Positions 329 through 13,987 of a DNA stretch of 17,601 nucleotides are shown in pieces. The notes below the pieces were generated by a model, which searched no databases, was not told the origin of the DNA, and was given only the letters and a program-made list of their open reading frames with translations. The DNA is taken from IMG/VR virus record IMGVR_UViG_2695420739_000021. One strand, written 5' to 3'. Both the position numbers and the translations under genes were made by a program. The first letter of the stretch is position 1, and each line of letters opens with the position of its first letter. This DNA comes from a virus (taxonomy: Duplodnaviria > Heunggongvirae > Uroviricota > Caudoviricetes).

Positions 329-342
329 GGGATTTTTGGTCC

Positions 343-375
343 ACGAGAGTAGTTTAATTGAGTATGTAACTACAT
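343..375. other. Candidate att core region (attL side), with inverted repeat GTAGTT / AACTAC
   Basis: Identity between the two unit starts begins at 342/9051. Inverted repeat 349-354 / 368-373 resembles core-type integrase half-sites. Exact crossover cannot be fixed without attB. Confidence 0.3.
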
Positions 376-410
376 GATTTTAAATAGTATGCTTGATTCA
401 ACTTTTAAAC

Positions 411-434
411 CGTATAACTAAACGTATAACTAAA
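411..434. repeat. Tandem 12-bp direct repeats CGTATAACTAAA x2 (putative integrase arm-type sites, P' arm)
   Basis: Perfect tandem copies at 411-422 and 423-434; same motif occurs four times upstream of int (8858-8912). Confidence 0.45.
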
Positions 435-660
435 ATCATTTGCTGAAAAAGTGTACAATTTAAATGCGAGTTTTCCTGTGGTAAAAGCTCCAACCGTAAC
501 GATGTTCGTTATGGTTGCCTTGATGGTCTGCGTGGTCATTATGACCATTCAGGATTTGAAGGGTGACGCTTCCGACTTCCTCAAATTGAGGTTTCCGAAA
601 ATATCAGCGGGTTAGCGATTAATCTGACCATTAATTAAACTGCGAAAATTTCGTAATTAT

Positions 661-686
661 CCCGATATGGGGATCACCATATCGGG
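661..686 (-). terminator. Hairpin downstream of capsid-like gene (putative operon terminator)
   Basis: Perfect 10-bp inverted repeat CCCGATATGG / CCATATCGGG with 6-nt spacer, just 3' of the gene ending at 703; followed by AU-rich rather than a clean U-tract. Confidence 0.35.
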
Positions 687-702
687 ATTGATGCCGGAAA
701 AA

Positions 703-1629
703 TCAGCTTTTCGCCAGAACGGTGACGGCCTTATCGAGTTTTTGCCATCCGCAATAGGTGATTGCCCTGAACGCTGTAGCGTCATTCTGGAAAAGGCTAA
801 CCGTCCCTGATTCGGTTTTTATTACCGCCTCATCAGTTGGGGTTATAACCGTGGCTTCAACGTTAATAATCAGCTTTTGAGCGTCTATCAGCATCATGCG
901 ATCCGCCTGTTCGCTCACAATTACCGGTATTCTCAAAAGCTCTATCTGCCAGAACTCAGCATCAGTAAGCTGTAAGGCGTTTTCTACGGGCAAGATTAGC
1001 GACGACGTGGCAAGCGTGTTACCGTTCGCTATGTGCTTTTTGAAAAGCTCTATGAAGTTTTCGGCCTCATCAGCACCATTAAGCACGCCCTCAGGGGATA
1101 CGCCCGCCACCTCCTGGTCACTGGAAAGAAATTTTTTATCTATTTCTTTCACCGATTCCGATGTGATCAAGTCTCTGATCGCTGAATTGGTACCAGGGGT
1201 GCTAAATTTGATTAGCTCGTTATTCAGCATCACAATAGCGCCAAGTTTGCACAGTTTTAGCGCACTTTCGTTTACTTCTCCCTCTTTGACAGGGATTTCT
1301 TCGGCTTCTTTAAGCCATTTACTACCCTTGCCTGATATTGACTGCAATTTTGCGCCAAACGGAAGATTCAGCGCGCTGCTGATTAGCTTGCCTGGTACAG
1401 ACTGCGAAAAAATATACTCGCCAAGCTCTCTTACTATCGGCTCTGCCACCAGCGACGGCATATTATCCGTAGTCATTCCGGCAACAATGGATTTTTCAAG
1501 AAATTTCGATACTGCCGGATCATTTTTTTTCGTCATTTCAATTGCGTCTGCATGGCTGAATTTACACGATGTAAGCACGCTGGCGGCGCGAACTGCCGAC
1601 ACGCCTTTCATGTTTTTAGAAATCATCAT
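703..1629 (-). CDS. HK97-fold major capsid protein-like (308 aa, no delta/scaffold domain)
   Basis: ATGATG start with AGGAGG about 8 nt upstream. Segment KLGAIVMLNNELIKF...EVAGVSPEGVLNGA resembles the conserved HK97-family capsid motif. Last gene of the terS operon. Assignment is from memory, not a search. Confidence 0.5.
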   Translation of the reverse strand: MMISKNMKGVSAVRAASVLTSCKFSHADAIEMTKKNDPAVSKFLEKSIVAGMTTDNMPSLVAEPIVRELGEYIFSQSVPGKLISSALNLPFGAKLQSISGKGSKWLKEAEEIPVKEGEVNESALKLCKLGAIVMLNNELIKFSTPGTNSAIRDLITSESVKEIDKKFLSSDQEVAGVSPEGVLNGADEAENFIELFKKHIANGNTLATSSLILPVENALQLTDAEFWQIELLRIPVIVSEQADRMMLIDAQKLIINVEATVITPTDEAVIKTESGTVSLFQNDATAFRAITYCGWQKLDKAVTVLAKS

Positions 1630-1777
1630 CTTCTTCCTCCTGGTAACATGGGGTTAGGGTTTCGTGAAAATATGGCATCAGAACAGCGGCAGCCTGTAAC
1701 CGTATTTCGGTTGGCTGCTGCTTGTCGTTCATGATTTCCGTGAGTACATCAATAGGGTCTGTGATGTATTCGCTCAT
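1616..1777 (-). CDS. Hypothetical small protein (53 aa) with acidic C-terminal tail
   Basis: ATG at 1777, 11 nt after terS stop; MSEYITDPIDVLTEIMNDKQQPTEIRLQAAAVLMPYFHETLTPCYQEEEDDDF; overlaps capsid start by 14 nt. Not in ORF track (under length cutoff). Confidence 0.35.
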   Translation of the reverse strand: MSEYITDPIDVLTEIMNDKQQPTEIRLQAAAVLMPYFHETLTPCYQEEEDDDF

Positions 1778-1788
1778 AGTTCGCTACC

Positions 1789-2277
1789 TCAGTGTTTTAA
1801 GCCAGTTGGTGGCTTAGGGATGGGGAACCGATTTGAGGAGACATTAGCGGCATTGAGTTTTTTAACCTCTTTTTTCCCAATGCTGCCGATCTTGCGGTGG
1901 GTGAACTGGGCCAGCTTAAACGCGGCATCTAAAGCCAGTTTTGGATCTGTGTCCATGTTGTCAATCAGTATCCTGCCCATTGCTTTGATGGGGTCGGGTA
2001 GGCCGTTATCCATCATCTCAATGGTGTTAATTGATGCCCGTTCCGGTGTAACTTTTTCGGTAACTTTCTTTGTAACTTTTTTCGGTTTTGTAACCTGAAA
2101 AGTTACATCAGAAGTTACAGCCTTAAGATACTTTTTCACCTCCGGATCATTGGATAGCTGCCAGCCTTTAACCCTTGCAGTCTTTTCGCTGTATCCCGCA
2201 TGTATCGCGGCTTCCGTTGGATTTGTGCCCTTTGATAACGCATCAGCAAACCGCTTTTTTTTGGTCGTTAATGCCAT
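1789..2277 (-). CDS. terS: Terminase small subunit (N-terminal HTH type)
   Basis: Internal ATG (MALTTKKKRFADALSKGTNPTEAAIHAGYSEKTARVKGWQL...) matches the TerS DNA-binding N-terminus. The track's longer 208-aa start is an unlikely N-terminal extension. Confidence 0.7.
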   Translation of the reverse strand: MALTTKKKRFADALSKGTNPTEAAIHAGYSEKTARVKGWQLSNDPEVKKYLKAVTSDVTFQVTKPKKVTKKVTEKVTPERASINTIEMMDNGLPDPIKAMGRILIDNMDTDPKLALDAAFKLAQFTHRKIGSIGKKEVKKLNAANVSSNRFPIPKPPTGLKH

Positions 2278-2323
2278 GCAAAAACCTCGTTTTGAGGGGG
2301 TGTAACTTTTCGTGTAACTTTTT
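2048..2323. repeat. Cluster of GTAAC(T)TTT repeats inside and just upstream of terS (candidate pac site)
   Basis: Direct copies at about 2048, 2060, 2072, 2090, 2302, 2313 and inverted AGTTAC at about 2101 and 2113. Two copies lie upstream of the terS start codon, so not purely a coding-repeat effect. Confidence 0.35.
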
Positions 2324-2404
2324 TGAAAAGCAAAATTTTCTATGAATGAGACTGGGGGCGGTGTCCAGGGCGATCGACTTTCCGGCCGGAACACTCCCCC
2401 CCTG

Positions 2405-2566
2405 TCATTGCTCACCGAGTAACGAGATCAGGCCTTCAACTTCATCACTCAGCTTGTTTATTCGTGTCTCAAGCTCTGCGATCTTTTCCATCAATGGCGC
2501 TATGGTGTCTCTTGTTTCCTCGCCAATGGCTTTAATGATGCTTGCCTCGCGTTCTGTGATAGCCAT
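2405..2566 (-). CDS. Hypothetical small coiled-coil protein (53 aa)
   Basis: ATG 3 nt after the stop of the preceding 64-aa gene; MAITEREASIIKAIGEETRDTIAPLMEKIAELETRINKLSDEVEGLISLLGEQ. Not in ORF track. Confidence 0.3.
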   Translation of the reverse strand: MAITEREASIIKAIGEETRDTIAPLMEKIAELETRINKLSDEVEGLISLLGEQ

Positions 2567-2569
2567 TGT

Positions 2570-2764
2570 TTACGCCTCACTTGTTGCAATGCCCAGGCGT
2601 TCGCGTAACAGTACGCGCGCAAGATGCCCTATTGTTGGTGTTGCCGCCCTGCCGTAGATACCTGATTCATTCATCCGGCGCACAATATCGAACTGCAACT
2701 TTTTAAGCTCGTTAAGGATTTCATGATCAATCATCACGGTAGCGCTTTGCTTTATCTCTTCCAC
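2570..2764 (-). CDS. Hypothetical small protein (64 aa), first gene of packaging operon; possible DNA-binding
   Basis: GTG start at 2764 with AGGAG 8 nt upstream; sits after an AT-rich promoter-like region and the terminator of the preceding unit. Confidence 0.4.
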   Translation of the reverse strand: MEEIKQSATVMIDHEILNELKKLQFDIVRRMNESGIYGRAATPTIGHLARVLLRERLGIATSEA

Positions 2765-2852
2765 TTTGTTTTCTCCTGATACTTATCATTGCATAACCAG
2801 TATTTTCGATAGATTATCATTAATTAACCATATTTGAAGATATATGAGATCG

Positions 2853-2876
2853 AAAAAAAGCCGGATTGCTCCGGCT
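2853..2876 (-). terminator. Intrinsic terminator after the 81-aa gene
   Basis: Minus-strand hairpin GCCGGAGCAATCCGGC followed by U7 (plus strand: A-run 2853-2859, hairpin 2860-2875). Confidence 0.6.
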
Positions 2877-2894
2877 ATGTGCTCACTTCTTCGG

Positions 2895-3140
2895 TTATTC
2901 TCCAGCGCTTTTAACGTTGATGGTTGTTACCTGTTCCGCTTCGGCAATCTCCCGTTCTGTCAGCGTGGCAAAGTTTGCCGCCGCTGTGGTCATGAATGCG
3001 CTTATCAGTTCGGGATGCTCCTTCGCGTATCCTTCCCCCGCGTGGCGGTCTATCGTTCTGATTGCCACCTTTAAGGAAAGCTCTGTCATGTCTAACGCTT
3101 TATATTTTGGCGCTGTCTTATCTCTGGTTTTTCTGTTCAT
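2895..3140 (-). CDS. Hypothetical protein (81 aa), origin-adjacent
   Basis: ATG at 3140 directly abutting the iteron array; followed by the intrinsic terminator. Confidence 0.35.
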   Translation of the reverse strand: MNRKTRDKTAPKYKALDMTELSLKVAIRTIDRHAGEGYAKEHPELISAFMTTAAANFATLTEREIAEAEQVTTINVKSAGE

Positions 3141-3345
3141 TCCCCACTACTCCCCACTTTTGCTCCCCACTTTTTGAAATTACCCACCGTCTCCCCACCT
3201 CTTTTTTTTGTGATTCTAACGTTATGTTTTTCAATATGTTTTTTACTCCCCACTTTTTTGGGTATATACAGGTGGGAAAGTGGGTAATTATGTTTCAATT
3301 TTGTTAAATTCCCCACTCCCCCCACTTTTACTCCCCACTTTTTAC
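3141..3345. repeat. Replication origin candidate: iterons (C)TCCCCACTTTT plus AT-rich segment
   Basis: At least 8 direct copies (3141, 3150, 3163, 3191, 3245, 3310, 3319, 3331), 2 inverted (GTGGGAAAGTGGGTA at 3272-3286), and AT-rich stretch 3201-3245. Directly 3' of the rep gene. Confidence 0.6.
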
Positions 3346-4675
3346 AGCGGGCGCACGTCATCACCGTCAATAACGATTACGCCATCATTTTCCAGCTTGT
3401 ACAGCCAGCGCCGGAAGTGCTTCATCTCATACCCCAGCTTTTTCATATCGTCGCGGAGAAGGGCGATAGTGCACGCCTCCCCGTGTGCTGTTCGTGTTCT
3501 GATGCACTGCCATAGCGCGGCGTGATTCTCCGTCTTGTTCCCTGCCTCCTCGATGCGCTCCAGTTCAACGGGAGGGCGCGGCTTATCCACCACCACCAGC
3601 GACGTGATTAACTCCCCGTCAGCGTCGGTAAAAAGCTCCACCACGCGTAAGTCATATGCTGCTTCTTTGAGTTCCTCCGCGTCCTTCATTTTGGTACATG
3701 AGATAACCAGCGCTTCGCTGCCTGCGTCCTCCCTGCGTATCCGGTATTCGGCGTCCAGTGATGCACGAAATGCACTGGAACCACGCGCCCCCTTTGTTTC
3801 ATCCTTGCCGGAATGGTGAACCACCAGCACCGTTGCCCCTGTGCGCCGTTTCAGTTCGTCACACCCACGGATAAACGCCCCCATATCACGGGAATCATTT
3901 TCATCATTGCCGCCAAAGCAGCGCGCCAGCGTATCCAGAATAATCATTCGAACCGGTTTACCCGTTTCCCGTTCCACCTGACGGGCAGCGATAACCATTT
4001 CACGTGCACAACCTCCCAGGCTTTTACACGACGCGGAACACCTATACCGCCTTCACCAACCACATAGAGAACCGCACCATGTGCAACCCTGCGGCCTCCC
4101 CACTGGCGACCAGTGGCAACATGGCACGCCCACGATCCGGCAAGGAATGATTTATAGGACCCGCTAGCCCCGTATATGCTGCATAGCGATACCGCCGGAA
4201 TAATCCCCTTAACCACGTAATCCAGTTGCGTGTCGTATCCGGTAGATCCAACGCTCATCGGTAGCGTGGTTTTTCGCTGGTGGTTTTTTTCTTCCGCCGG
4301 CTCTTTCCCGCGCACCCGTTCCAGGTATTCGCGCCAGTTCTCCCGCATATGGCTGTGCATCCCTTCGGGGTAATAATTCGCATCAGTTACACCCGCCGCC
4401 GCCAGCTTGTGCGCAATGGCATTAATATTTGATGGCCTGATGTGGCCTGCCTTGTACAGCCGGACACAATAGCGCCCCTCGTCGATGATTCTCAGGTCTG
4501 CCAGTTCATCCAGTTGATCATCAGCCAGCACAACGGGAGGCACATTATCGCCAGCCAGTCGCCCGTCCTGTTCCTGCCACTGTTTCGCATGTGCCCAGGC
4601 ATCACTACCCGCAAAAATAATGACTTCGGTCATCTTGTCGTAAGGCTGTTTTTTTAAGTTCGGTGCGCTTTTCAT
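3342..4675 (-). pseudogene. Disrupted replication protein (AAA_25/RepA-like), split by 67-bp deletion
   Basis: Copy 2 has one 466-aa ORF; copy 1 is split into 3944..4675 (N-terminal, Walker A GASGSYKSF, frameshifted tail) and 3342..3998 (C-terminal, Walker B MIILD). Deletion at about 3999-4001. Confidence 0.7.
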
Positions 4676-4971
4676 TTCTTGCCCCTGAATCCGTTAATCA
4701 TGGTTTTCAGCTTCTGGATGTTTGCCCGTGCCCTGGCGTTGCTGGTGGGCACGTTATGCGGCGCGGTCTGTACCAGAGAAAAATCACGCCGGAACTGATA
4801 AACAGGCATCACGCAATCATATTCGTAACCTTCACGGCGGTAAGTTACGCACCGTCCCGCCACGCCCTTAATCATTACCGTGCCGCCGTACTGGTCGCGG
4901 TAAATATCACCGCGCGTAAATTTAGGGTGAGTGTTGCCACTGGCAGTTAAGCCAGAATATTTAAGTTTCAT
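4672..4971 (-). CDS. Hypothetical protein (99 aa), translationally coupled to rep
   Basis: ATG at 4971 with GGAG upstream; stop overlaps rep start (ATGA). Confidence 0.4.
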   Translation of the reverse strand: MKLKYSGLTASGNTHPKFTRGDIYRDQYGGTVMIKGVAGRCVTYRREGYEYDCVMPVYQFRRDFSLVQTAPHNVPTSNARARANIQKLKTMINGFRGKK

Positions 4972-4976
4972 TATTT

Positions 4977-5210
4977 TTATTCTCCGGTGTGCTGTTCGTT
5001 ATATCTGTCGTGCAATGTCTCTATTTCCTGCAACTCATTTATTACAGGCTCAAGAAGCGTTATTAATGCCGTGACAATTCTTGATTTTTGTTTGTCGCGT
5101 TCATTGTCGCCAAGTGTTTCAAGCCATATGCGCAATATTTCGTACATACCTTCAGCGTAAGCAAGGGCACTAAATGCGCGGTCTATTGTTTCGTGGTAAA
5201 TATCACGCAT
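4977..5210 (-). CDS. Small acidic helical protein (77 aa)
   Basis: ATG at 5210; net negative charge; overlaps stop of the upstream gene (TAATATG). Confidence 0.4.
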   Translation of the reverse strand: MRDIYHETIDRAFSALAYAEGMYEILRIWLETLGDNERDKQKSRIVTALITLLEPVINELQEIETLHDRYNEQHTGE

Positions 5211-5211
5211 A

Positions 5212-5433
5212 TTAATCCCCGTCCGTTGTTTTTCTTAAAACAGCTTCTGTCACGAAATCAGCATAGTTAGCGGCAATATCAAGAATATTTAGCCCTGTAT
5301 CTCTGTGCTCATCAGTGCAAAGAAAGAAAAAAGCCACCCGCATAATTTCAGATATTGACGAAAGCGCATCAGCCGCATCATCAGGAACGCCGGAAAATTC
5401 TTGTTTCAGGGAATTAAAACGATCATCACGCAT
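5212..5433 (-). CDS. Small acidic protein (73 aa), paralog of the next gene (PDDAADAL motif)
   Basis: Start MRDDRF with a G8 run as ribosome-binding site; overlaps the upstream gene (ATGCGTGA). Confidence 0.4.
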   Translation of the reverse strand: MRDDRFNSLKQEFSGVPDDAADALSSISEIMRVAFFFLCTDEHRDTGLNILDIAANYADFVTEAVLRKTTDGD

Positions 5434-5647
5434 AACCCCCCCCATTTTCACAATCAGCAACAAGAATATTTTTAGCGTCATTCAGCGACCGCGTTGCGAT
5501 GTATCGGATACATTCCAGGGCGAACTGTGTCCGGTCTTTCTGTTCTTCTCCCTGCGCAAGCTCTGCAGTGCATTCAATATCGATAAGCGCGTGCATCAGC
5601 GTAGTGAGCGCGTCGGCTGCTGCGTCCGGTGTGGTTTTATTGCACAT
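5426..5647 (-). CDS. Small acidic protein (73 aa), paralog (TPDAAADAL motif)
   Basis: Start MCNKTT with AGGAGG 7 nt upstream; overlaps the Icd-like stop. Confidence 0.4.
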   Translation of the reverse strand: MCNKTTPDAAADALTTLMHALIDIECTAELAQGEEQKDRTQFALECIRYIATRSLNDAKNILVADCENGGGYA

Positions 5648-6197
5648 GGCACACCTCCTGACGAATACGGGCGGCGAATACAGCAACACAACCGGACGGG
5701 CAACGGCTACGCGCTTCGCGTTCCGTCCAGGCGGTTACGTGGATGATTTGATGTTCTGACGCGCCAAAGATGATAAAGCGCCAGAGAAAGGCGGTTTGAG
5801 AATGTACAAGGGTAGGGATAGTAGCCATGTTGGCAGCCTCCTCAGTGTGGTTAAGATAACCGCCACCGGAAACGCCAATTTCGCTGGTGGCGGACTGTAC
5901 AGGGTTGGCGTAACCGGACACTGAAGAAACCGGCGCGGATTGCTCCGCCCCCGTACAGCCCACCATTGATAAGGTGTGACTATGCGGCACAAAAAAACAC
6001 GCGGGGCGCGTGTTATGCGCTTCAGTTTTGCCCAGGACGCCAATCCCGGCACCCGTTTTATGAGGTGCGCGGGAATCATAGCTATTTTCGACACTGGCGA
6101 TCAACTGGTTTTTTTCTCCGATATTCAGGGCCAGAAAACGCCACACAAAGGCCGTTTGTGTGTGTACAAGGTGTGGTATATGATTTACGGCAACCAT
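5637..6197 (-). CDS. Icd-like (Ash-family) protein, tandem two-domain reading frame; internal start at 5828 gives a 63-aa Icd-like product
   Basis: Two paralogous segments share HLVH(T/S)QTAF(V/L)WRF; distal one ends ...TEREARSR...VFAARIRQEV, like P4-type Icd-like proteins. No stop between them. GAGGAGG precedes the internal ATG at 5828; GGAG precedes ATG at 6197. Confidence 0.45.
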   Translation of the reverse strand: MVAVNHIPHLVHTQTAFVWRFLALNIGEKNQLIASVENSYDSRAPHKTGAGIGVLGKTEAHNTRPACFFVPHSHTLSMVGCTGAEQSAPVSSVSGYANPVQSATSEIGVSGGGYLNHTEEAANMATIPTLVHSQTAFLWRFIIFGASEHQIIHVTAWTEREARSRCPSGCVAVFAARIRQEVCHVQ

Positions 6198-6285
6198 AAC
6201 GGCTCCTAGTTTACGTTGTTGGTTAGACGCCCCGTATGTGTTCCCAGCACTGCGGGGCGTTGATTTTTGTGTAATGGCAAGTACA

Positions 6286-6329
6286 ATGGTAATTACCATG
6301 TAGGTATAGTAATGAAGGGTAATTACCAT
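6286..6329. promoter_or_regulatory. Paired palindromic operators in divergent promoter region
   Basis: Perfect 14-bp palindrome ATGGTAATTACCAT (6286-6299) and 12-bp GGTAATTACCAT (6318-6329), centres 30 bp apart; second overlaps the RHH start codon. Possible TATAGT -10 at 6305-6310. Confidence 0.5.
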
Positions 6330-6501
6330 GTCAACACCATTAGAAAAACGTTCGCCTCCATACCAAATGCGATTACCGGAAGACTTCAGAGCGCAGCTAG
6401 AAGAAGCAGCTAAGGCCGATGGCGACACATCTTTAGCCACTTGGATTAAACGCGTTCTCCGCAAAGAATTACAGCAACGCGGCATAGAACCCAAAGGATA
6501 A
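6328..6501 (+). CDS. Ribbon-helix-helix (Arc/CopG-like) DNA-binding protein, 57 aa; putative element repressor
   Basis: MSTPLEKRSPPYQMRLPEDFRAQLEEAAKADGDTSLATWIKRVLRKELQQRGIEPKG fits the Arc-type RHH pattern. Divergent from the Icd/rep operon. Not in ORF track. Confidence 0.5.
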   Translation: MSTPLEKRSPPYQMRLPEDFRAQLEEAAKADGDTSLATWIKRVLRKELQQRGIEPKG

Positions 6502-6543
6502 AAACTATCAGCGCCGTGGTGTGAGGTATTACGGCGCATTGCT

Positions 6544-6732
6544 ATGCAGGACAACACAATGACCGATAAAGAATTGACCAAAACATTATCACCGGCACGG
6601 AAAAGACGGCGCAGAAAGATAGAGCATGAATCAGAAAGATTCGCGCCATGTGCTTTTGCCCTTGAGCAATTCCTTAAAGAGTACAGGGAAAAGCGCTCAT
6701 TGCAGGTATGGCAACGAACTGAACCAGACTGA
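6544..6732 (+). CDS. Hypothetical basic small protein (62 aa)
   Basis: ORF between RHH gene and the plus-strand terminator; weak ribosome-binding site; arginine-rich stretch KRRRRK. Confidence 0.25.
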   Translation: MQDNTMTDKELTKTLSPARKRRRRKIEHESERFAPCAFALEQFLKEYREKRSLQVWQRTEPD

Positions 6733-6827
6733 TTGCATTGCCCACCAGCCTGATAGCGGCTATCATCCCCGTGCTTATGTTTGGGATCACATACACATAA
6801 GGCGCAGCGGGTTAATTGTTCAGAAAG

Positions 6828-6854
6828 GCGGCTCCATATCGGGGCCGCTTTTTT
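6828..6854 (+). terminator. Intrinsic terminator at convergence of RHH unit and alpA
   Basis: Stem GCGGCTCC / GGGGCCGC (one G-U pair), 5-nt loop, then T6. Confidence 0.55.
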
Positions 6855-6880
6855 CGTGTTTGTCATATCTGTGATACCCG

Positions 6881-7087
6881 TTAAGCAGCCGTTCCGCGTG
6901 CTTCCTCTTCGCGTTCTTTCTGCCAGGACAACACATCATCCTCATACCATCCGCGACGGCGTAAACCAACGCGAAAACCCTGCGGAAATTCTCCGGCGTT
7001 GATCATGCTTTGCAGCGTGCTGTCTGCCTTGATGTGGATAATTTTTTTTACTTCCTGGCGAAAGATAATTTTTCTGATTGCTTCCAT
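6881..7087 (-). CDS. alpA: AlpA-family regulator / excisionase-like protein (68 aa)
   Basis: ...STLQSMINAGEFPQGFRVGLRRRGWYEDDVLSWQ matches the AlpA-family HTH pattern. Confidence 0.75.
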   Translation of the reverse strand: MEAIRKIIFRQEVKKIIHIKADSTLQSMINAGEFPQGFRVGLRRRGWYEDDVLSWQKEREEEARGTAA

Positions 7088-7103
7088 CGTGATTTACCTT
7101 GTG

Positions 7104-7191
7104 AATCCGGTGTATTCCGGTGACAAATACGGTAAATCATCGGATATGGGTAAAAACAGTTCCCACCGTTTTTAAACGGTATACACCGTTT
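7104..7191. promoter_or_regulatory. alpA upstream control region: TCCGGTG repeats and ACCGTTT/AAACGGT inverted repeats
   Basis: ATCCGGTG (7104-7111) and TTCCGGTGA (7114-7122) spaced 10 bp; inverted repeats at 7165-7180 and 7174-7191. The TCCGGTG motif recurs next to the att core. Confidence 0.35.
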
Positions 7192-7220
7192 TTTATATTG
7201 ATGATTTGAAATGGAATTAT

Positions 7221-7243
7221 AAAAAAAGCGGCATTTCTGCCGC
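7221..7243 (-). terminator. Intrinsic terminator of the int / 83-aa unit
   Basis: Minus-strand hairpin GCGGCAGAAATGCCGC followed by U7. Confidence 0.6.
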
Positions 7244-7254
7244 TTCCAGGATTG

Positions 7255-7506
7255 TTACCGCCATTTTTTGGGCCTGCCTCCGATCTTCATAGATGCCGGA
7301 CGTACGACCTTATCAATACTTACCGCCAGATTTCTGGAAGCGCCACGGGATACCAGAAAATCTACTACCTGTTTTTTTGATGGGGCCGTCGTTCTGTCCT
7401 CCGGATCGTAGGTTGACCAAAATTCATGCTGAACCATCAGGGCCAGTTGCAGCCCGTCGCAATTGCATCTGATATTTTTTTGCATCTTAACGGTTTCATG
7501 TTTCAC
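7255..7506 (-). CDS. Hypothetical int-linked small protein (83 aa)
   Basis: ORF downstream of int on the same strand, before the terminator; GTG start at 7506 (alternative ATG at M8); TATAAT motif about 28 nt upstream. Confidence 0.4.
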   Translation of the reverse strand: MKHETVKMQKNIRCNCDGLQLALMVQHEFWSTYDPEDRTTAPSKKQVVDFLVSRGASRNLAVSIDKVVRPASMKIGGRPKKWR

Positions 7507-7583
7507 GGCCTTGTCGTTAAATTTGATGCAATTATACGACGGTTTTACATGGTTTTCGTAGTTTTTACTGGTTTTCTGTACAG

Positions 7584-8825
7584 CTACACGGCTCGGATAC
7601 CCCTTTTACCACTGGCGAGGGTTACGCCCGTCGCCGCAGCCTCGACAAATTCGCCCCACCAGCGCATCAGCACGATGCGTTTTTCTATGTAGTTGCTCCG
7701 GTTGTATGCCCGTCTAACTTCGTTGGTGTCGACGTGGGCAAGTGCCGCCTCTATTACGTCCGGCTCGAATCCTTCCTCGTTCGCTGCTGTGCTGAATATG
7801 GCGCGTAATCCATGAGACACCAGCACGCCAGCGAATCCCATACGCCGCAATGCTGCGTTAGCTGTCTGGCTGTTCATCGGCTGCTGTGGGTCTTTCAGAC
7901 TTGGGAAAACGTAATTGCGGTGGTGGCTGATTGGTTTCATGGCCTCCAGCACCGCCATAGCCTGACCGGAAAGCGGGATAACGTGATCCCTGCGCATCTT
8001 CATGCGTCCGGCAGGTATCGTCCATTGCTTCGCGTCCAGGTTGATTTCATCCCACCGCGTTGATGACGCTTCGGCGGGACGGGTTACGGTCAGTAACTGC
8101 CATTCAATCAGTAATCTGGTCTGCCGTTCTGTTGCCGATACTGATAAAGCCTGCATAAGCTCGGGCAGCTGTTCGGGGCGGATTGTTGGCATATGTTTTT
8201 TTACAGGTGAGGGAAACGCCTTACGCACATTCATAGCCGGATTGGCATCAATCAGCCCACTGTTGGCGGCGTAATCCATTACCTCATTAACGCGCTGTAA
8301 AACCCGCTTGAGTGTTTCCAGGTTGCCGCGCTCCTTGATGGGGGTAAGCACTTCAACGAACCTTCGGGCGGTGAGGGTATCTATTGGCGTGTTGCCGATG
8401 AACGGGAATACATATTTATCCAGCGAACGCCAGATGTCTTTAATCGTGTTGGGGGCCAGATTCTGGCTGATTTTCACCTGGTACCATGCCGCCGCCACAT
8501 TTTCGAACGTGTTCCCTTGTCTTCGGGCCTCTGTCTCTCTTTTTTGCCTCTCGTGGTCCTGCGGGTCAGTTCCGGCACTGATTAACGTCCTGTACTCGCT
8601 ACGGCGTTTTCTGGCATCAGCCAGGGAAACATCTTCAAGCGATCCAAAACTCAGCAATATTCTTTTTTTGTCCGATGGTCGGTAGTAGGAAAATCTCCAG
8701 AGTTTTGATCCAGACGGTTTGACCAGGAGAAAAAGCCCTCCGCCGTCCTGCAGGGTGTACTCCTTTTGCGCTGGTCTGGCTGCTTTGATCTGCACTGTGG
8801 TTAATGGGTGTGTTTTTCTCGCCAT
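7584..8825 (-). CDS. int: Tyrosine integrase, P4-type (413 aa)
   Basis: N-terminus MARKTHPLTTVQIKAARPAQKEYTLQDGGGLFLLVKPSGSKLWRFSYY is typical of P4-like integrases; ATG at 8825 preferred over the upstream GTG. Confidence 0.85.
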   Translation of the reverse strand: MARKTHPLTTVQIKAARPAQKEYTLQDGGGLFLLVKPSGSKLWRFSYYRPSDKKRILLSFGSLEDVSLADARKRRSEYRTLISAGTDPQDHERQKRETEARRQGNTFENVAAAWYQVKISQNLAPNTIKDIWRSLDKYVFPFIGNTPIDTLTARRFVEVLTPIKERGNLETLKRVLQRVNEVMDYAANSGLIDANPAMNVRKAFPSPVKKHMPTIRPEQLPELMQALSVSATERQTRLLIEWQLLTVTRPAEASSTRWDEINLDAKQWTIPAGRMKMRRDHVIPLSGQAMAVLEAMKPISHHRNYVFPSLKDPQQPMNSQTANAALRRMGFAGVLVSHGLRAIFSTAANEEGFEPDVIEAALAHVDTNEVRRAYNRSNYIEKRIVLMRWWGEFVEAAATGVTLASGKRGIRAV

Positions 8826-8857
8826 ATGTCTATGATTCCACACGAAAAAACAGGGTT

Positions 8858-8912
8858 TTAGTTATACGGCTTTAGTTATACGCCAGCCCGTATAACTAAA
8901 CGTATAACTAAA
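8858..8912. repeat. Four copies of CGTATAACTAAA (two inverted, two direct): putative arm-type sites, P arm
   Basis: TTTAGTTATACG at about 8858 and 8871; CGTATAACTAAA at about 8890 and 8901. Same motif as 411-434. Confidence 0.45.
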
Positions 8913-8923
8913 AAATCCGGCTG

Positions 8924-9037
8924 ATAGCTTATAAATCCGGTGATGTTCGGTGACTAAAAAACATAAAAAAACCCGCCAATCAAGTGATTAGCGGGTTATC
9001 CCTGTCTTATCCGGTGCTTTCCGGTGATATCCGGTGG
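8924..9037. repeat. TCCGGTG direct repeats, three phased at 10 bp, next to att core (candidate directionality-factor sites)
   Basis: Copies at about 8924 (variant), 8935, 8946 (variant), 9009, 9019, 9029; the last three are exactly 10 bp apart. Confidence 0.4.
8962..8997 (-). terminator. Intrinsic terminator between the copy-2 capsid operon and int
   Basis: Minus-strand stem AACCCGC / GCGGGTT with 14-nt loop followed by U7. Confidence 0.5.
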
Positions 9038-9119
9038 GCGATTTGGTCGGCACGAGAGTAGTTTAATTGAGTATGTAACTACATGATTTTAAATAGTATG
9101 CTTGATTCAACTTTTAAAC

Positions 9120-9143
9120 CGTATAACTAAACGTATAACTAAA
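9120..9143. repeat. Tandem CGTATAACTAAA x2 (P' arm of junction attP)
   Basis: Copy-2 equivalent of 411-434; with 8858-9037 and the core near 9051 this forms a full attP-like site. Confidence 0.45.
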
Positions 9144-9411
9144 ATCATTTGCTGAAAAAGTGTACAATTTAAATGCGAGTTTTCCTGTGGTAAAAGCTCC
9201 AACCGTAACGATGTTCGTTATGGTTGCCTTGATGGTCTGCGTGGTCATTATGACCATTCAGGATTTGAAGGGTGACGCTTCCGACTTCCTCAAATTGAGG
9301 TTTCCGAAAATATCAGCGGGTTAGCGATTAATCTGACCATTAATTAAACTGCGAAAATTTCGTAATTATCCCGATATGGGGATCACCATATCGGGATTGA
9401 TGCCGGAAAAA

Positions 9412-10338
9412 TCAGCTTTTCGCCAGAACGGTGACGGCCTTATCGAGTTTTTGCCATCCGCAATAGGTGATTGCCCTGAACGCTGTAGCGTCATTCTGGA
9501 AAAGGCTAACCGTCCCTGATTCGGTTTTTATTACCGCCTCATCAGTTGGGGTTATAACCGTGGCTTCAACGTTAATAATCAGCTTTTGAGCGTCTATCAG
9601 CATCATGCGATCCGCCTGTTCGCTCACAATTACCGGTATTCTCAAAAGCTCTATCTGCCAGAACTCAGCATCAGTAAGCTGTAAGGCGTTTTCTACGGGC
9701 AAGATTAGCGACGACGTGGCAAGCGTGTTACCGTTCGCTATGTGCTTTTTGAAAAGCTCTATGAAGTTTTCGGCCTCATCAGCACCATTAAGCACGCCCT
9801 CAGGGGATACGCCCGCCACCTCCTGGTCACTGGAAAGAAATTTTTTATCTATTTCTTTCACCGATTCCGATGTGATCAAGTCTCTGATCGCTGAATTGGT
9901 ACCAGGGGTGCTAAATTTGATTAGCTCGTTATTCAGCATCACAATAGCGCCAAGTTTGCACAGTTTTAGCGCACTTTCGTTTACTTCTCCCTCTTTGACA
10001 GGGATTTCTTCGGCTTCTTTAAGCCATTTACTACCCTTGCCTGATATTGACTGCAATTTTGCGCCAAACGGAAGATTCAGCGCGCTGCTGATTAGCTTGC
10101 CTGGTACAGACTGCGAAAAAATATACTCGCCAAGCTCTCTTACTATCGGCTCTGCCACCAGCGACGGCATATTATCCGTAGTCATTCCGGCAACAATGGA
10201 TTTTTCAAGAAATTTCGATACTGCCGGATCATTTTTTTTCGTCATTTCAATTGCGTCTGCATGGCTGAATTTACACGATGTAAGCACGCTGGCGGCGCGA
10301 ACTGCCGACACGCCTTTCATGTTTTTAGAAATCATCAT
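9412..10338 (-). CDS. HK97-fold major capsid protein-like (copy 2)
   Basis: Identical translation to 703..1629. Confidence 0.5.
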   Translation of the reverse strand: MMISKNMKGVSAVRAASVLTSCKFSHADAIEMTKKNDPAVSKFLEKSIVAGMTTDNMPSLVAEPIVRELGEYIFSQSVPGKLISSALNLPFGAKLQSISGKGSKWLKEAEEIPVKEGEVNESALKLCKLGAIVMLNNELIKFSTPGTNSAIRDLITSESVKEIDKKFLSSDQEVAGVSPEGVLNGADEAENFIELFKKHIANGNTLATSSLILPVENALQLTDAEFWQIELLRIPVIVSEQADRMMLIDAQKLIINVEATVITPTDEAVIKTESGTVSLFQNDATAFRAITYCGWQKLDKAVTVLAKS

Positions 10339-10486
10339 CTTCTTCCTCCTGGTAACATGGGGTTAGGGTTTCGTGAAAATATGGCATCAGAACAGCGGCA
10401 GCCTGTAACCGTATTTCGGTTGGCTGCTGCTTGTCGTTCATGATTTCCGTGAGTACATCAATAGGGTCTGTGATGTATTCGCTCAT
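10325..10486 (-). CDS. Hypothetical small protein with acidic tail (copy 2)
   Basis: Copy of 1616..1777 at +8709. Confidence 0.35.
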   Translation of the reverse strand: MSEYITDPIDVLTEIMNDKQQPTEIRLQAAAVLMPYFHETLTPCYQEEEDDDF

Positions 10487-10497
10487 AGTTCGCTACC

Positions 10498-10986
10498 TCA
10501 GTGTTTTAAGCCAGTTGGTGGCTTAGGGATGGGGAACCGATTTGAGGAGACATTAGCGGCATTGAGTTTTTTAACCTCTTTTTTCCCAATGCTGCCGATC
10601 TTGCGGTGGGTGAACTGGGCCAGCTTAAACGCGGCATCTAAAGCCAGTTTTGGATCTGTGTCCATGTTGTCAATCAGTATCCTGCCCATTGCTTTGATGG
10701 GGTCGGGTAGGCCGTTATCCATCATCTCAATGGTGTTAATTGATGCCCGTTCCGGTGTAACTTTTTCGGTAACTTTCTTTGTAACTTTTTTCGGTTTTGT
10801 AACCTGAAAAGTTACATCAGAAGTTACAGCCTTAAGATACTTTTTCACCTCCGGATCATTGGATAGCTGCCAGCCTTTAACCCTTGCAGTCTTTTCGCTG
10901 TATCCCGCATGTATCGCGGCTTCCGTTGGATTTGTGCCCTTTGATAACGCATCAGCAAACCGCTTTTTTTTGGTCGTTAATGCCAT
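10498..10986 (-). CDS. terS: Terminase small subunit (copy 2)
   Basis: Identical to 1789..2277; ATG confirmed at 10984-10986 (plus-strand CAT). Confidence 0.7.
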   Translation of the reverse strand: MALTTKKKRFADALSKGTNPTEAAIHAGYSEKTARVKGWQLSNDPEVKKYLKAVTSDVTFQVTKPKKVTKKVTEKVTPERASINTIEMMDNGLPDPIKAMGRILIDNMDTDPKLALDAAFKLAQFTHRKIGSIGKKEVKKLNAANVSSNRFPIPKPPTGLKH

Positions 10987-11113
10987 GCAAAAACCTCGTT
11001 TTGAGGGGGTGTAACTTTTCGTGTAACTTTTTTGAAAAGCAAAATTTTCTATGAATGAGACTGGGGGCGGTGTCCAGGGCGATCGACTTTCCGGCCGGAA
11101 CACTCCCCCCCTG

Positions 11114-11275
11114 TCATTGCTCACCGAGTAACGAGATCAGGCCTTCAACTTCATCACTCAGCTTGTTTATTCGTGTCTCAAGCTCTGCGATCTTTTCCAT
11201 CAATGGCGCTATGGTGTCTCTTGTTTCCTCGCCAATGGCTTTAATGATGCTTGCCTCGCGTTCTGTGATAGCCAT
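11114..11275 (-). CDS. Hypothetical coiled-coil protein, 53 aa (copy 2)
   Basis: Copy of 2405..2566. Confidence 0.3.
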   Translation of the reverse strand: MAITEREASIIKAIGEETRDTIAPLMEKIAELETRINKLSDEVEGLISLLGEQ

Positions 11276-11278
11276 TGT

Positions 11279-11473
11279 TTACGCCTCACTTGTTGCAATG
11301 CCCAGGCGTTCGCGTAACAGTACGCGCGCAAGATGCCCTATTGTTGGTGTTGCCGCCCTGCCGTAGATACCTGATTCATTCATCCGGCGCACAATATCGA
11401 ACTGCAACTTTTTAAGCTCGTTAAGGATTTCATGATCAATCATCACGGTAGCGCTTTGCTTTATCTCTTCCAC
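11279..11473 (-). CDS. Hypothetical small protein, 64 aa (copy 2)
   Basis: Identical translation to 2570..2764. Confidence 0.4.
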   Translation of the reverse strand: MEEIKQSATVMIDHEILNELKKLQFDIVRRMNESGIYGRAATPTIGHLARVLLRERLGIATSEA

Positions 11474-11603
11474 TTTGTTTTCTCCTGATACTTATCATTG
11501 CATAACCAGTATTTTCGATAGATTATCATTAATTAACCATATTTGAAGATATATGAGATCGAAAAAAAGCCGGATTGCTCCGGCTATGTGCTCACTTCTT
11601 CGG

Positions 11604-11849
11604 TTATTCTCCAGCGCTTTTAACGTTGATGGTTGTTACCTGTTCCGCTTCGGCAATCTCCCGTTCTGTCAGCGTGGCAAAGTTTGCCGCCGCTGTGGTC
11701 ATGAATGCGCTTATCAGTTCGGGATGCTCCTTCGCGTATCCTTCCCCCGCGTGGCGGTCTATCGTTCTGATTGCCACCTTTAAGGAAAGCTCTGTCATGT
11801 CTAACGCTTTATATTTTGGCGCTGTCTTATCTCTGGTTTTTCTGTTCAT
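11604..11849 (-). CDS. Hypothetical origin-adjacent protein, 81 aa (copy 2)
   Basis: Identical translation to 2895..3140. Confidence 0.35.
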   Translation of the reverse strand: MNRKTRDKTAPKYKALDMTELSLKVAIRTIDRHAGEGYAKEHPELISAFMTTAAANFATLTEREIAEAEQVTTINVKSAGE

Positions 11850-12054
11850 TCCCCACTACTCCCCACTTTTGCTCCCCACTTTTTGAAATTACCCACCGTC
11901 TCCCCACCTCTTTTTTTTGTGATTCTAACGTTATGTTTTTCAATATGTTTTTTACTCCCCACTTTTTTGGGTATATACAGGTGGGAAAGTGGGTAATTAT
12001 GTTTCAATTTTGTTAAATTCCCCACTCCCCCCACTTTTACTCCCCACTTTTTAC
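11850..12054. repeat. Replication origin iterons (copy 2)
   Basis: Same TCCCCACTTTT iteron array as 3141..3345. Confidence 0.6.
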
Positions 12055-13451
12055 AGCGGGCGCACGTCATCACCGTCAATAACGATTACGCCATCATTTT
12101 CCAGCTTGTACAGCCAGCGCCGGAAGTGCTTCATCTCATACCCCAGCTTTTTCATATCGTCGCGGAGAAGGGCGATAGTGCACGCCTCCCCGTGTGCTGT
12201 TCGTGTTCTGATGCACTGCCATAGCGCGGCGTGATTCTCCGTCTTGTTCCCTGCCTCCTCGATGCGCTCCAGTTCAACGGGAGGGCGCGGCTTATCCACC
12301 ACCACCAGCGACGTGATTAACTCCCCGTCAGCGTCGGTAAAAAGCTCCACCACGCGTAAGTCATATGCTGCTTCTTTGAGTTCCTCCGCGTCCTTCATTT
12401 TGGTACATGAGATAACCAGCGCTTCGCTGCCTGCGTCCTCCCTGCGTATCCGGTATTCGGCGTCCAGTGATGCACGAAATGCACTGGAACCACGCGCCCC
12501 CTTTGTTTCATCCTTGCCGGAATGGTGAACCACCAGCACCGTTGCCCCTGTGCGCCGTTTCAGTTCGTCACACCCACGGATAAACGCCCCCATATCACGG
12601 GAATCATTTTCATCATTGCCGCCAAAGCAGCGCGCCAGCGTATCCAGAATAATCATTCGAACCGGTTTACCCGTTTCCCGTTCCACCTGACGGGCAGCGA
12701 TAACCATTTCCTCAACATCAAGCGGGGCAGCCGGAAAGATGGGACGGTTTACCAGATACAGATTTTTCACCTGCTCACCGTGCACAACCTCCCAGGCTTT
12801 TACACGACGCGGAACGCCGATACCGCCTTCACCAACCACATAGAGAACAGCGCCATGCGCCACCCTGCGGCCTCCCCACTGGCGGCCCGTGGAAACGTGA
12901 CACGCCCACGAACCCGCAAGGAACGATTTATATGAACCGCTCGCCCCGTATATGCTGCACAGCGATACCGCCGGAATAATCCCCTTAACCACGTAATCAA
13001 GTTGTGTGTCGTATCCGGCAGATCCCACGCTCATTGGTAGCGTGGTTTTTCGCTGGTGGTGTTTTTCTTCCCCTGGCTTTTTCCCCCGCTCCCGTTCCAG
13101 ATATTCGCGCCAGTTCTCCCGCTTCTGGCTGTGCATCCCTTCGGGGTAATAATTCGCATCAGTTACACCCGCCGCCGCCAGCTTGTGCGCAATGGCATTA
13201 ATATTTGATGGCCTGATGTGGCCTGCCTTGTACAGCCGGACACAATAGCGCCCCTCGTCGATGATTCTCAGGTCTGCCAGTTCATCCAGTTGATCATCAG
13301 CCAGCACAACGGGAGGCACATTATCGCCAGCCAGTCGCCCGTCCTGTTCCTGCCACTGTTTCGCATGTGCCCAGGCATCACTACCCGCAAAAATAATGAC
13401 TTCGGTCATCTTGTCGTAAGGCTGTTTTTTTAAGTTCGGTGCGCTTTTCAT
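12051..13451 (-). CDS. Replication protein, AAA_25/RepA-DnaB-like ATPase with C-terminal winged-helix region (466 aa, intact)
   Basis: Single ORF with Walker A (GASGSYKSF), Walker B (VRMIILDTLARCFGG), VLVVHHSGKDETKGARGSSA motif and basic C-terminal region; ATG at 13451; origin immediately 3'. Confidence 0.75.
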   Translation of the reverse strand: MKSAPNLKKQPYDKMTEVIIFAGSDAWAHAKQWQEQDGRLAGDNVPPVVLADDQLDELADLRIIDEGRYCVRLYKAGHIRPSNINAIAHKLAAAGVTDANYYPEGMHSQKRENWREYLERERGKKPGEEKHHQRKTTLPMSVGSAGYDTQLDYVVKGIIPAVSLCSIYGASGSYKSFLAGSWACHVSTGRQWGGRRVAHGAVLYVVGEGGIGVPRRVKAWEVVHGEQVKNLYLVNRPIFPAAPLDVEEMVIAARQVERETGKPVRMIILDTLARCFGGNDENDSRDMGAFIRGCDELKRRTGATVLVVHHSGKDETKGARGSSAFRASLDAEYRIRREDAGSEALVISCTKMKDAEELKEAAYDLRVVELFTDADGELITSLVVVDKPRPPVELERIEEAGNKTENHAALWQCIRTRTAHGEACTIALLRDDMKKLGYEMKHFRRWLYKLENDGVIVIDGDDVRPL

Positions 13452-13747
13452 TTCTTGCCCCTGAATCCGTTAAACATGGTTTTCAGCTTCTGGATGTTTG
13501 CCCGTGCCCTGGCGTTGCTGGTGGGCACGTTATGCGGCGCGGTCTGTACCAGAGAAAAATCACGCCGGAACTGATAAACAGGCATCACGCAATCATATTC
13601 GTAACCTTCACGGCGGTAAGTTACGCACCGTCCCGCCACGCCCTTAATCATTACCGTGCCGCCGTACTGGTCGCGGTAAATATCACCGCGCGTAAATTTA
13701 GGGTGAGTGTTGCCACTGGCAGTTAAGCCAGAATATTTAAGTTTCAT
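13448..13747 (-). CDS. Hypothetical protein, 99 aa, coupled to rep (copy 2)
   Basis: Copy of 4672..4971 with one substitution (I to F). Confidence 0.4.
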   Translation of the reverse strand: MKLKYSGLTASGNTHPKFTRGDIYRDQYGGTVMIKGVAGRCVTYRREGYEYDCVMPVYQFRRDFSLVQTAPHNVPTSNARARANIQKLKTMFNGFRGKK

Positions 13748-13752
13748 TATTT

Positions 13753-13986
13753 TTATTCTCCGGTGTGCTGTTCGTTATATCTGTCGTGCAATGTCTCTAT
13801 TTCCTGCAACTCATTTATTACAGGCTCAAGAAGCGTTATTAATGCCGTGACAATTCTTGATTTTTGTTTGTCGCGTTCATTGTCGCCAAGTGTTTCAAGC
13901 CATATGCGCAATATTTCGTACATACCTTCAGCGTAAGCAAGGGCACTAAATGCGCGGTCTATTGTTTCGTGGTAAATATCACGCAT
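13753..13986 (-). CDS. Small acidic helical protein, 77 aa (copy 2)
   Basis: Identical translation to 4977..5210. Confidence 0.4.
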   Translation of the reverse strand: MRDIYHETIDRAFSALAYAEGMYEILRIWLETLGDNERDKQKSRIVTALITLLEPVINELQEIETLHDRYNEQHTGE

Positions 13987-13987
13987 A

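Follow-up and report, generated by a model that had tools for sequence, protein, structure and literature searches.

A candidate Arc/Mnt-like repressor and its putative operators at the replication operon of a Gram-negative phage satellite

We analyzed a 17,601-nucleotide stretch of DNA (IMG/VR virus record IMGVR_UViG_2695420739_000021, hereafter the window) that carries a phage satellite of Gram-negative bacteria and, within it, a gene for a 57-aa protein preceded by two palindromes. This gene probably encodes an Arc/Mnt-like ribbon-helix-helix (RHH) repressor, which through the two putative operators would silence the leftward replication operon of the satellite and limit its own synthesis. 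Since the window consists of two satellite copies in tandem, head to tail (copy 1 at about 335-9042, copy 2 at 9042-17601), the RHH gene, the operators and the other features recur at an offset of +8776, and the interval 6201-6510 is identical in the two copies. Positions refer to copy 1 unless stated otherwise and are collected in Table 1.

The first-pass annotation had called a plus-strand RHH gene of 57 aa, and this call was confirmed. We found 93 homologues of the protein, 54-62 aa long and 64-98% identical, in Enterobacterales, Pasteurellales (Pasteurellaceae), Aeromonas, Oceanimonas and Gilliamella. Codon variability followed the pattern of a coding frame read on the plus strand, with 0.47 at position 3, 0.21 at position 1 and 0.10 at position 2. 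The RHH module (296 bp, at least 80% covered) was present in about 536 of 5,426 complete E. coli genomes (~10%), including O157:H7 and O26:H11. In the O26 and O157 genomes, RefSeq/PGAP leaves the RHH gene unannotated and gives instead an opposite-strand pseudogene, "Icd-like protein, incomplete", (12752-13267 in locus L001 of our comparison, equivalent to window positions 6351-6866, and 9137-9730 in locus L077), while small plus-strand genes are annotated in CFT073 and STEC1587. Because of this pseudogene, and because a 409-aa minus-strand frame runs antisense through the gene, we compared the substitutions in both frames. Those synonymous only in the plus frame numbered 3,473, versus 952 synonymous only in the wobble-matched minus frame (3.6 to 1). 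On these patterns, the 57-aa open reading frame (ORF) is a genuine gene.

The opposite possibility is that the 409-aa eta/Icd-like frame is the true gene, and that the 57-aa ORF and the palindromes are by-products of it or of RNA structure. The length over which this frame is open, the PGAP pseudogene and the precedent of P4 eta (PMC10111431) speak for it, as does the finding that 28 of 56 distinct sequences keep the minus frame open over the operators and the RHH gene, with lengths of up to 529 aa from stop to stop. However, this frame is broken in the remaining half of the loci, whereas all of them keep the plus frame at its length; the substitutions favor the plus frame, the plus product has an RHH fold and a family match, and the minus translation is Cys-rich and junk-like. 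Moreover, both readings can coexist, as the minus frame may stay open only in order to be translated through. We therefore consider this alternative very unlikely, and the 409-aa ORF as a gene in place of RHH was ruled out by the substitution pattern and by the interruption of the frame in half of the loci.

The predicted structure of the protein follows the order of the RHH superfamily, an N-terminal beta-strand, a helix, a turn and a second helix. PHROG 228 ("Arc-like repressor") matched residues 6-55 with E=1.5e-6, and the AlphaFold model (pLDDT 77) presented an extended N-terminus followed by two helices. In profile alignments to P22 Arc and Mnt (hhalign probability 16-24%), the segment RSPQYQMRL fell in register with their DNA-reading strands. 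Taken together, we accept an Arc-like RHH fold as predicted by the model and the profiles.

The palindromes were borne out by direct reading. As the first-pass annotation had described, a perfect 14-bp palindrome and a 12-bp second copy lie 30 bp apart, and the second overlaps the RHH start codon, as operator O2 ends with the AT of the codon at 6328-6330. The region of both sites reads ...TACAATGGTAATTACCATGTAGGTATAGTAATGAAGGGTAATTACCATGTCAACACCA..., and O2 (AGGGTAATTACCAT) agrees with O1 (ATGGTAATTACCAT) at 13 of 14 positions, the last 12 bases being identical. Both share the palindromic core GGTAATTACC at 6288-6297 and 6318-6327, 30 bp from center to center. Allowing up to one mismatch, we observed four matches to GGTAATTACC in the window (6288, 6318, 15064 and 15094) compared to 0.47 expected, and 0 of 200 dinucleotide shuffles reached four. 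That there are four reflects the two tandem copies; no further copy of the core was found elsewhere in the element at this threshold.

For comparison we used 69 loci taken from one-genome-per-species contigs, of which 53 distinct loci served for the operator and promoter counts. A 10-bp palindrome centered 5 bp before the RHH start codon was present in nearly all related loci, and most had a second, often less perfect site 27-35 bp upstream of O2, at a spacing of 30-31 bp in 31 of the 53. O2 was the perfect site and O1 was degenerate in most loci, which suits a firm repression of the leftward operon with a weaker self-limitation. The operator core varied together with the residues of the N-terminal strand, defining 3-4 specificity classes. 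Strands of the type ..SPQ/PY/FQMRL went with the core GGTAATTACC (21 distinct loci), ..TDQYQ(I/L)RL with TGTAATTACA (11 distinct loci), ..SPQFPMRL with GGTATATACC (6 distinct loci) and ..NPPFQFRL with a TGTAATT-type core (4 distinct loci). The direction of these changes appears to make structural sense, the outer bases changing with the N-terminal arm and the central bases with the mid-strand residue. Because of this covariation, and because the sites stay with the RHH gene when AlpA and integrase are exchanged, the palindromes behave as cognate operators of the RHH protein; the comparison thus supports such a role, in which the protein would bind them.

We also considered that the palindromes could be bound by another factor (AlpA, integrase/Xis or IHF) or be chance repeats in an AT-rich promoter, since the region is indeed AT-rich and binding of AlpA-family proteins to repeats close to promoters is known in P4-like elements (PMC6092414). 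Shuffled sequences never contained as many sites, the site core varies with the RHH strand residues, and loci with the same RHH but a different alpA and int keep the same sites. In EcCICFT073, where the RHH is replaced by a non-homologous protein of the YlcI/YnfO type, different repeats occupy the same place. Such an origin of the sites is thus extremely improbable.

The positions of the operators were then set against the predicted promoters. A perfect minus-strand TTGACA covers codons 1-3 of the RHH gene (reverse complement of ATG TCA A) in 50 of the 53 distinct loci, although serine has six codons, and a -10-like hexamer follows 16-18 nt past it; this places O2 in the spacer that separates the -35 from the -10 of the predicted leftward promoter. 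O1 extends from about +1 to +14 of the leftward transcript, and its sequence includes the final 2 nt of the -10 of the predicted RHH promoter. In most loci a TAnnnT hexamer, recognized by eye as a pattern match, lies directly 5' of O1. Given the predicted starts, near 6299 leftward and near 6294 rightward, the two promoters would be face-to-face and mutually exclusive. The divergent promoter of the first-pass annotation was thus replaced by an overlapping, face-to-face arrangement and not a back-to-back one, while its proposal that the RHH protein regulates its own gene and represses the replication operon fits the positions of the operators on the predicted promoters.

We propose that one RHH dimer would occupy each palindrome (10-14 bp), the two centers lying about three helical turns apart. 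Proteins of the RHH superfamily are obligate dimers that use their paired strands to recognize short (pseudo)palindromes or repeats; the structure prediction covered the monomer, and the palindromic sites, with a core that varies together with the strand residues, lend indirect support to such a dimer here. On O2, the dimer would fill the spacer of a strong leftward promoter driving the leader, the isrK and C4 RNAs, the Icd/kil-like ORF, DUF4222 and the RepA helicase-primase operon. On O1, it would cover the leftward start together with the -10/+1 region of the weaker RHH promoter. With both operators occupied in the integrated state, the leftward promoter would be held off or low, the replication operon would be silent and RHH synthesis would be capped.

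An alternative to constant repression is that the RHH protein binds the palindromes but acts after induction, as P22 Arc and CopG do, damping the replication operon and setting the copy number, with quiescence left to the RNA layers and to the lack of AlpA. The operon faced by the RHH gene does encode replication proteins, and an RHH protein paired with a candidate counter-transcript that targets the ribosome-binding site of the first gene recalls CopG and RNA II of pMV158. In addition, the published model of Gram-negative PICIs (phage-inducible chromosomal islands) needs AlpA activation only, and the equivalent P4 promoter is constitutive in the prophage (PMC10111431). However, the RHH gene has its own opposed promoter and its own terminator, and is thus independent of the operon that it would control. 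This opposed layout is that of maintenance repressors (Mnt, Stl, CI) and not that of Arc or CopG, which sit inside the regulated operon, and the combination of a perfect O2 with a degenerate O1 suits constant repression. A role after induction therefore seems rather unlikely to us, without being negligible.

Several points weigh against the proposed repressor and its operators. The match to Pfam Arc (E=0.038, 14.3 bits against a cut-off of 20.4) and that to NCBIfam YlcI_YnfO_N (E=0.0014, 18.7 bits against a cut-off of 30) are both below their cut-offs and are therefore insufficient on their own for the RHH call. In the profile comparison with Arc/CopG/MetJ families suggested in the first-pass annotation, PHROG 228 gave a match while these two curated models stayed marginal, so that we do not assign the protein to Pfam Arc proper. 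When the family was run as a sequence profile against PDB chains, the matches were designed helical repeats, with AmrZ as the sole RHH match (E ~1), and the N-terminal 16 residues of the AlphaFold model are of low confidence. The operator classes follow phylogeny, so their covariation represents 3-4 independent events and not 50. Both promoters are consensus matches only, and loci of the TGTAATTACA class show no clear RHH promoter. Some homologues lie in remnants lacking an integrase or a primase, for example in Erwinia aphidicola. Finally, the equivalent promoter of P4 must stay active to supply the immunity RNA, so a tight repression here would starve C4, and the RHH protein may only modulate.

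The position and orientation of the gene are conserved. By tblastn, the primase was found on the left and on the opposite strand in 29 of 57 loci, and always on the left when detectable; AlpA was on the right and on the opposite strand in 19 of 57, and always on the right when detectable. The integrase was on the right and on the opposite strand in 28 of 57 loci (28 of the 30 with a detected integrase), the 2 others having an integrase-like match on the left. As the first-pass annotation had itself pointed to a consistent pairing with a toxin gene as the observation that would speak against a switch, we looked for such a partner downstream of RHH and found none: no co-directional ORF is conserved there across the distinct loci examined. 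Among the distinct loci listed, slightly fewer than half have no ORF of at least 35 aa within 150 nt downstream, and the ORFs of the remaining loci are mutually unrelated. If the RHH protein were a type II antitoxin, with orf62 or another neighbor as toxin, the palindromes would be a toxin-antitoxin autoregulatory operator unrelated to satellite control. Several observations speak against this reading: orf62 has no homologue outside E. coli islands, the toxin-antitoxin genes flanking the Erwinia locus are complete pairs on the other strand, and the place between AlpA/integrase and the primase operon is fixed. Because no co-directional partner is conserved, the antitoxin reading is largely refuted and we regard it as highly improbable.

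Directly left of the RHH promoter, a hairpin at 6227-6260 was kept in all loci, including beside the unrelated cassette of EcCICFT073, and several observations place it on the plus strand. It folds better on the plus than on the minus strand (-24.9 vs -18.4 kcal/mol here, with means of -24.4 vs -17.5 over the loci), and many of its G-U pairs would be A-C on the minus strand. In an alignment of 35 sequences (A2), 95.3% of the cells were paired and 14 of 21 pairs had changed on both sides; this level was reached in 0 of 500 shuffles, and slid controls stayed at 34-48%. In 38 of 43 distinct loci, a TAnnnT hexamer on the plus strand has its end exactly 10 nt ahead of the reverse-complemented start codon of the first leftward gene, regardless of the product of that gene, compared to 11.7 in shuffles that allowed it anywhere in a 14-nt range. 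Together, the fixed -10, the plus-strand stability, the G-U pairs and the covariation point to a predicted antisense RNA of ~80 nt (~6191-6270) spanning the reverse complements of the start codon (6195-6197) and the Shine-Dalgarno sequence (6203-6207) of the first leftward gene; its first stem-loop is predicted to present an anti-Shine-Dalgarno sequence. The conserved -10, this stem-loop, an invariant GGTYAGA and the covarying terminator recur in more than 40 distinct loci, and no Rfam family matches the region even with lax filters. The T-run of the terminator doubles as the -35 of the predicted RHH promoter. The hairpin had also been considered as a 5'-leader stem of the leftward mRNA; its G-U pairs and the -10 at a fixed position on the plus strand led us to prefer a plus-strand terminator.

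Further down the leftward transcript, we found an RNA immunity module of the P4/P1 type, with a C4/CI-type RNA and its upstream target in the early leader; the isrK and C4 RNA genes are both held within the first leftward ORF, and a terminator-like hairpin lies at 6014-5996 within the isrK region. This ORF of 186 aa matched Pfam Phage_ASH (E=3e-17) and NCBIfam phage_ICD_like (E=1e-16), and PGAP splits it into "ash family" and "Icd-like" proteins in the O26 strain 11368. The Phage_ASH match and the PGAP "ash family protein" (5799-6080, minus strand) coincide with the isrK and C4 RNA genes, so these protein families may largely model translated RNA genes, as noted before for P4 cI/eta (PMC10111431). 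Likewise, a terminator-like hairpin with a T-run, CACACAAACGGCCTTTGTGTGGCGTTTT, encodes the conserved Icd-like peptide motif H-T/S-Q-T-A-F-x-W-R-F, which occurs twice on the minus strand (6142-6162 and ~5790-5828); part of the "Icd-like" conservation may thus be at the RNA level.

Given the isrK/C4 module, the abutting antisense RNA candidate and AlpA as on-switch, the RHH protein would be one layer of control among several. The first-pass annotation had named it the master switch of the element; the operators and the geometry fit repression, but the additional layers mean that the label of master switch is not supported as it stands. Leftward transcripts that escape the repressor would have their translation blocked by the antisense RNA at the ribosome-binding site of the first gene, and in this element would also be terminated early by the isrK/C4 mechanism.

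For induction, experiments in the model element EcCICFT073 have identified the activator AlpA as what switches Gram-negative PICIs on (PMC6092414). The terminator between orf62 and alpA folds at -21.7 kcal/mol with a U-run on the plus strand and at -14.0 without a U-run on the minus strand; it should stop RHH-orf62 transcripts yet let leftward alpA transcripts pass. The 409-aa frame, which may resemble P4 eta and stay open to permit translated read-through, starts shortly past the alpA stop. In P4, the long eta/kil frame begins after the alpA homologue and contains the early promoter, and its translation through the immunity region prevents termination (PMC10111431). We suggest that helper-triggered AlpA probably drives transcription leftward through the one-way terminator, antisense over orf62 and RHH, and into the replication operon. 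Such a read-through may occur because the hairpin stops the plus direction only and the minus frame starts 14 nt past the alpA stop, and also because downstream expression in EcCICFT073 needs alpA and the P4 frame is translated through the immunity region. It would bypass and silence the repressor, which is speculative.

As satellite criteria we used an integrase, AlpA, a primase/helicase module, few packaging genes, a size of ~8-15 kb and a dedicated att site, without lysis or tail genes. The 8.7-kb unit of the window carries Int, AlpA, DUF4222, a RepA helicase-primase, TerS and a major capsid protein, and qualifies as a Gram-negative PICI/P4-like satellite. Going from right to left, the minus-strand genes are the integrase, an 83-aa ORF and AlpA and, past the plus-strand unit, the Icd/ash-like ORF, small ORFs, DUF4222, the RepA helicase-primase, small ORFs, TerS and the major capsid protein. 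This order agrees with the four-zone layout of satellites (integration, "Bro"/immunity, replication and late; PMC10111431). AlpA also matched PHROG 2790 and 66 ("excisionase and transcriptional regulator", E=2.5e-6). The two copies meet at a short tRNA-Pro att repeat, and the complete tRNA gene is not present in the window. Copy 2 is 99.9% identical to the single-copy island of E. coli O26:H11 strain 11368, which spans 8.7 kb at tRNA-Pro and adjoins yejM. The RepA helicase gene of copy 1 differs by a 67-bp deletion and a cluster of 26 substitutions at 4109-4349 and is thereby split into two ORFs.

Table 1. Features of the satellite in the window, as annotated or predicted (copy 1 positions).
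Feature	Position	Strand	Details
Integrase	7584-8843	-	First of the minus-strand gene order read right to left
83-aa ORF	Between integrase and AlpA	-	
AlpA-family regulator/excisionase	6881-7087	-	Convergent with the RHH-orf62 unit; Pfam Phage_AlpA E=0.0028, under cut-off
One-way terminator	6822-6854	+	Terminator scan; between orf62 and alpA; predicted to end the RHH-orf62 transcript
orf62, small basic ORF	6544-6732	+	Co-transcribed with RHH; PHROG 21027 E=1.6e-15, function unknown
RHH (Arc-like) candidate repressor gene	6328-6501	+	57 aa, ATG start; copy-2 twin 15104-15277
Predicted leftward promoter (PLE-like)	6306-6334	-	-35 TTGACA 6334-6329, 17-nt spacer, -10 TACTAT 6311-6306; start near 6299; 10/12 matches
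Putative operator O2	6316-6329	.	AGGGTAATTACCAT; core GGTAATTACC at 6318-6327; copy 2 15092-15105
Putative operator O1	6286-6299	.	Perfect 14-bp palindrome ATGGTAATTACCAT; copy 2 15062-15075
Predicted RHH promoter	6260-6287	+	-35 TTGATT 6260-6265, 16-nt spacer, -10 TACAAT 6282-6287; start near 6294; 9/12 matches
Candidate cis-antisense small RNA	6191-6270	+	~80 nt; -10 TATGAT 6179-6184; terminator hairpin 6227-6260 with T-run 6260-6269; copy 2 at +8776
First leftward ORF, kil/Icd-like	5637-6197	-	186 aa; holds the isrK and C4 RNA genes; PHROG 29966 over full length
isrK-type RNA (P4 seqA/c4 target region)	5992-6068	-	Rfam RF01394, 66.0 bits vs gathering 50, E=1e-12
C4 antisense RNA (P1 c4/P4 CI type immunity RNA)	5883-5970	-	Rfam RF01695, 77.6 bits vs gathering 45, E=2.6e-14, full length
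409-aa open frame	5637-6866	-	1230 nt; starts 14 nt past the alpA stop; antisense through orf62, RHH, operators, leader, isrK and C4, into the Icd-like ORF

Among the related loci, several from Photorhabdus (L033-L037) have two RHH modules with starts about 1.2 kb apart, and a metagenome-assembled genome of Enterobacterales (L005) has a second, divergent RHH-like ORF starting +6 nt past the first RHH stop. The Pasteurella "phage" Pmp8 (OR544139, L079) is a 15.3-kb record filed as a phage, with the gene set of a capsid-forming PICI; its RHH homologue (79% identity, 5007-5183) lies between an AlpA-like gene and the primase operon.

We then compared islands that differ around the RHH module. The O157:H7 island shares 6114-6854 with the window at 98% identity, including RHH and the operators, while alpA, int and the downstream genes differ. 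The model PICI EcCICFT073 has in the RHH slot a small YlcI/YnfO-type protein without significant similarity to the 57-aa RHH protein (24% identity, E=0.26), and its promoter region (L081, 5243-5853) carries GTGGCCCAC repeats. Its orf62 encodes an identical protein, the DNA being 98% identical from 8 nt past the RHH stop; orf62 is kept in E. coli PICIs only, and other genera have none downstream of RHH. Judged from these islands, the putative repressor cassettes are exchangeable. STEC1587 (L078, 7228-8290) contains a YlcI/YnfO module with CTGGATTCCAG repeats and a window-type module in tandem, and the latter faces a truncated leader only. The YlcI/YnfO family (NCBIfam NF041551) is thus linked to the RHH protein by a weak match (E=0.0014) and by the same slot before an identical orf62, and is set apart by promoter repeats of the GTGGCCCAC or CTGGATTCCAG types; no characterization of this family was found in the openly searchable literature. 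The "putative repressor" of EcCIMP1 was also checked and is an unrelated, PerC/ANR-like protein.

Gram-negative phage satellites spread virulence and defense genes, and their published control model has an activator, AlpA; the founding paper called the existence of a repressor unclear (PMC6092414). In the literature searched, subscription journals excepted, for an RHH or other repressor in Gram-negative PICIs and for Icd-like or C4 elements in satellites, the protein is undescribed. The conserved, mostly unannotated RHH gene with putative cognate operators on the promoter of the replication operon is a concrete and good candidate for a repressor not previously known in Gram-negative satellites. 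Going further, we tentatively raise the possibility that the RHH-operator cassette and the small RNA are the missing maintenance repressor, the "Stl equivalent", of Gram-negative PICIs, of elements like the capsid-forming PICIs and of P4-like satellites. They would then form exchangeable immunity cassettes defining immunity groups, embedded antisense in an eta-like frame that AlpA-driven late transcription uses to bypass and silence them. Such a set would count at least 3-4 operator specificities in the RHH family, plus the non-homologous YlcI/YnfO type of EcCICFT073. The specificity classes found in nature can serve directly as a recognition code for RHH-DNA contacts, and the antisense "Icd-like" pseudogene placed by RefSeq over the RHH gene is exposed as an annotation error.

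Among known systems, P4 and P1 share with the window a full-length C4 with isrK, an Icd-like ORF, an alpA homologue upstream and a long frame that begins just past alpA, with the early promoter inside it. In contrast, P4 has only ~180 nt between vis and the cI region, and no RHH homologue, palindromes or leader hairpin were found in P4, whose vis-PLE interval leaves no room for the module, so that the RHH module is an addition relative to P4. In the Staphylococcus aureus pathogenicity islands, the Stl repressors are large helix-turn-helix proteins that lose their activity on binding helper proteins, and stl has the same orientation as int (PMC6092414). As with Stl and with Rpr of Gram-positive PICIs (PMC6092414), the candidate repressor gene is opposed to the excision-replication operon and lies at the integrase-side boundary. 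By contrast with stl, the gene for the 57-aa RHH protein is convergent with alpA and int.

In plasmid pMV158/pLS1, copG lies inside the operon that it represses, CopG binds one 13-bp element, and RNA II acts as counter-transcript. The window presents a comparable pair of candidate repressor and counter-transcript; however, its RHH gene is opposed, with its own promoter and terminator, two sites and an integrated satellite replicon. In the immI region of P22, the small RHH repressors Mnt and Arc act at single operators of 17-21 bp, mnt is opposite to the silenced operon, and the opposed promoters overlap. The Arc operator lies between the -35 and the -10 of Pant, and the sar antisense RNA arises from within the operon against a downstream ribosome-binding site. 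The window presents the same combination of an opposed RHH gene, a putative operator in the promoter spacer, overlapping opposed promoters, as predicted, and a short predicted antisense RNA, together with a beta-strand that aligns in register. The differences are a marginal sequence similarity (the hhalign and Pfam Arc values given above), one repressor and not two, two separate palindromes of 10-14 bp, and a leftward operon that encodes Icd/ash/kil-like, DUF4222 and RepA helicase proteins and no antirepressor ant. The protein is not a demonstrated member of the P22 Mnt/Arc, CopG or Stl families. Overall, the resemblance to P22 immI is, by this analogy, one of proposed mechanism and not of membership.

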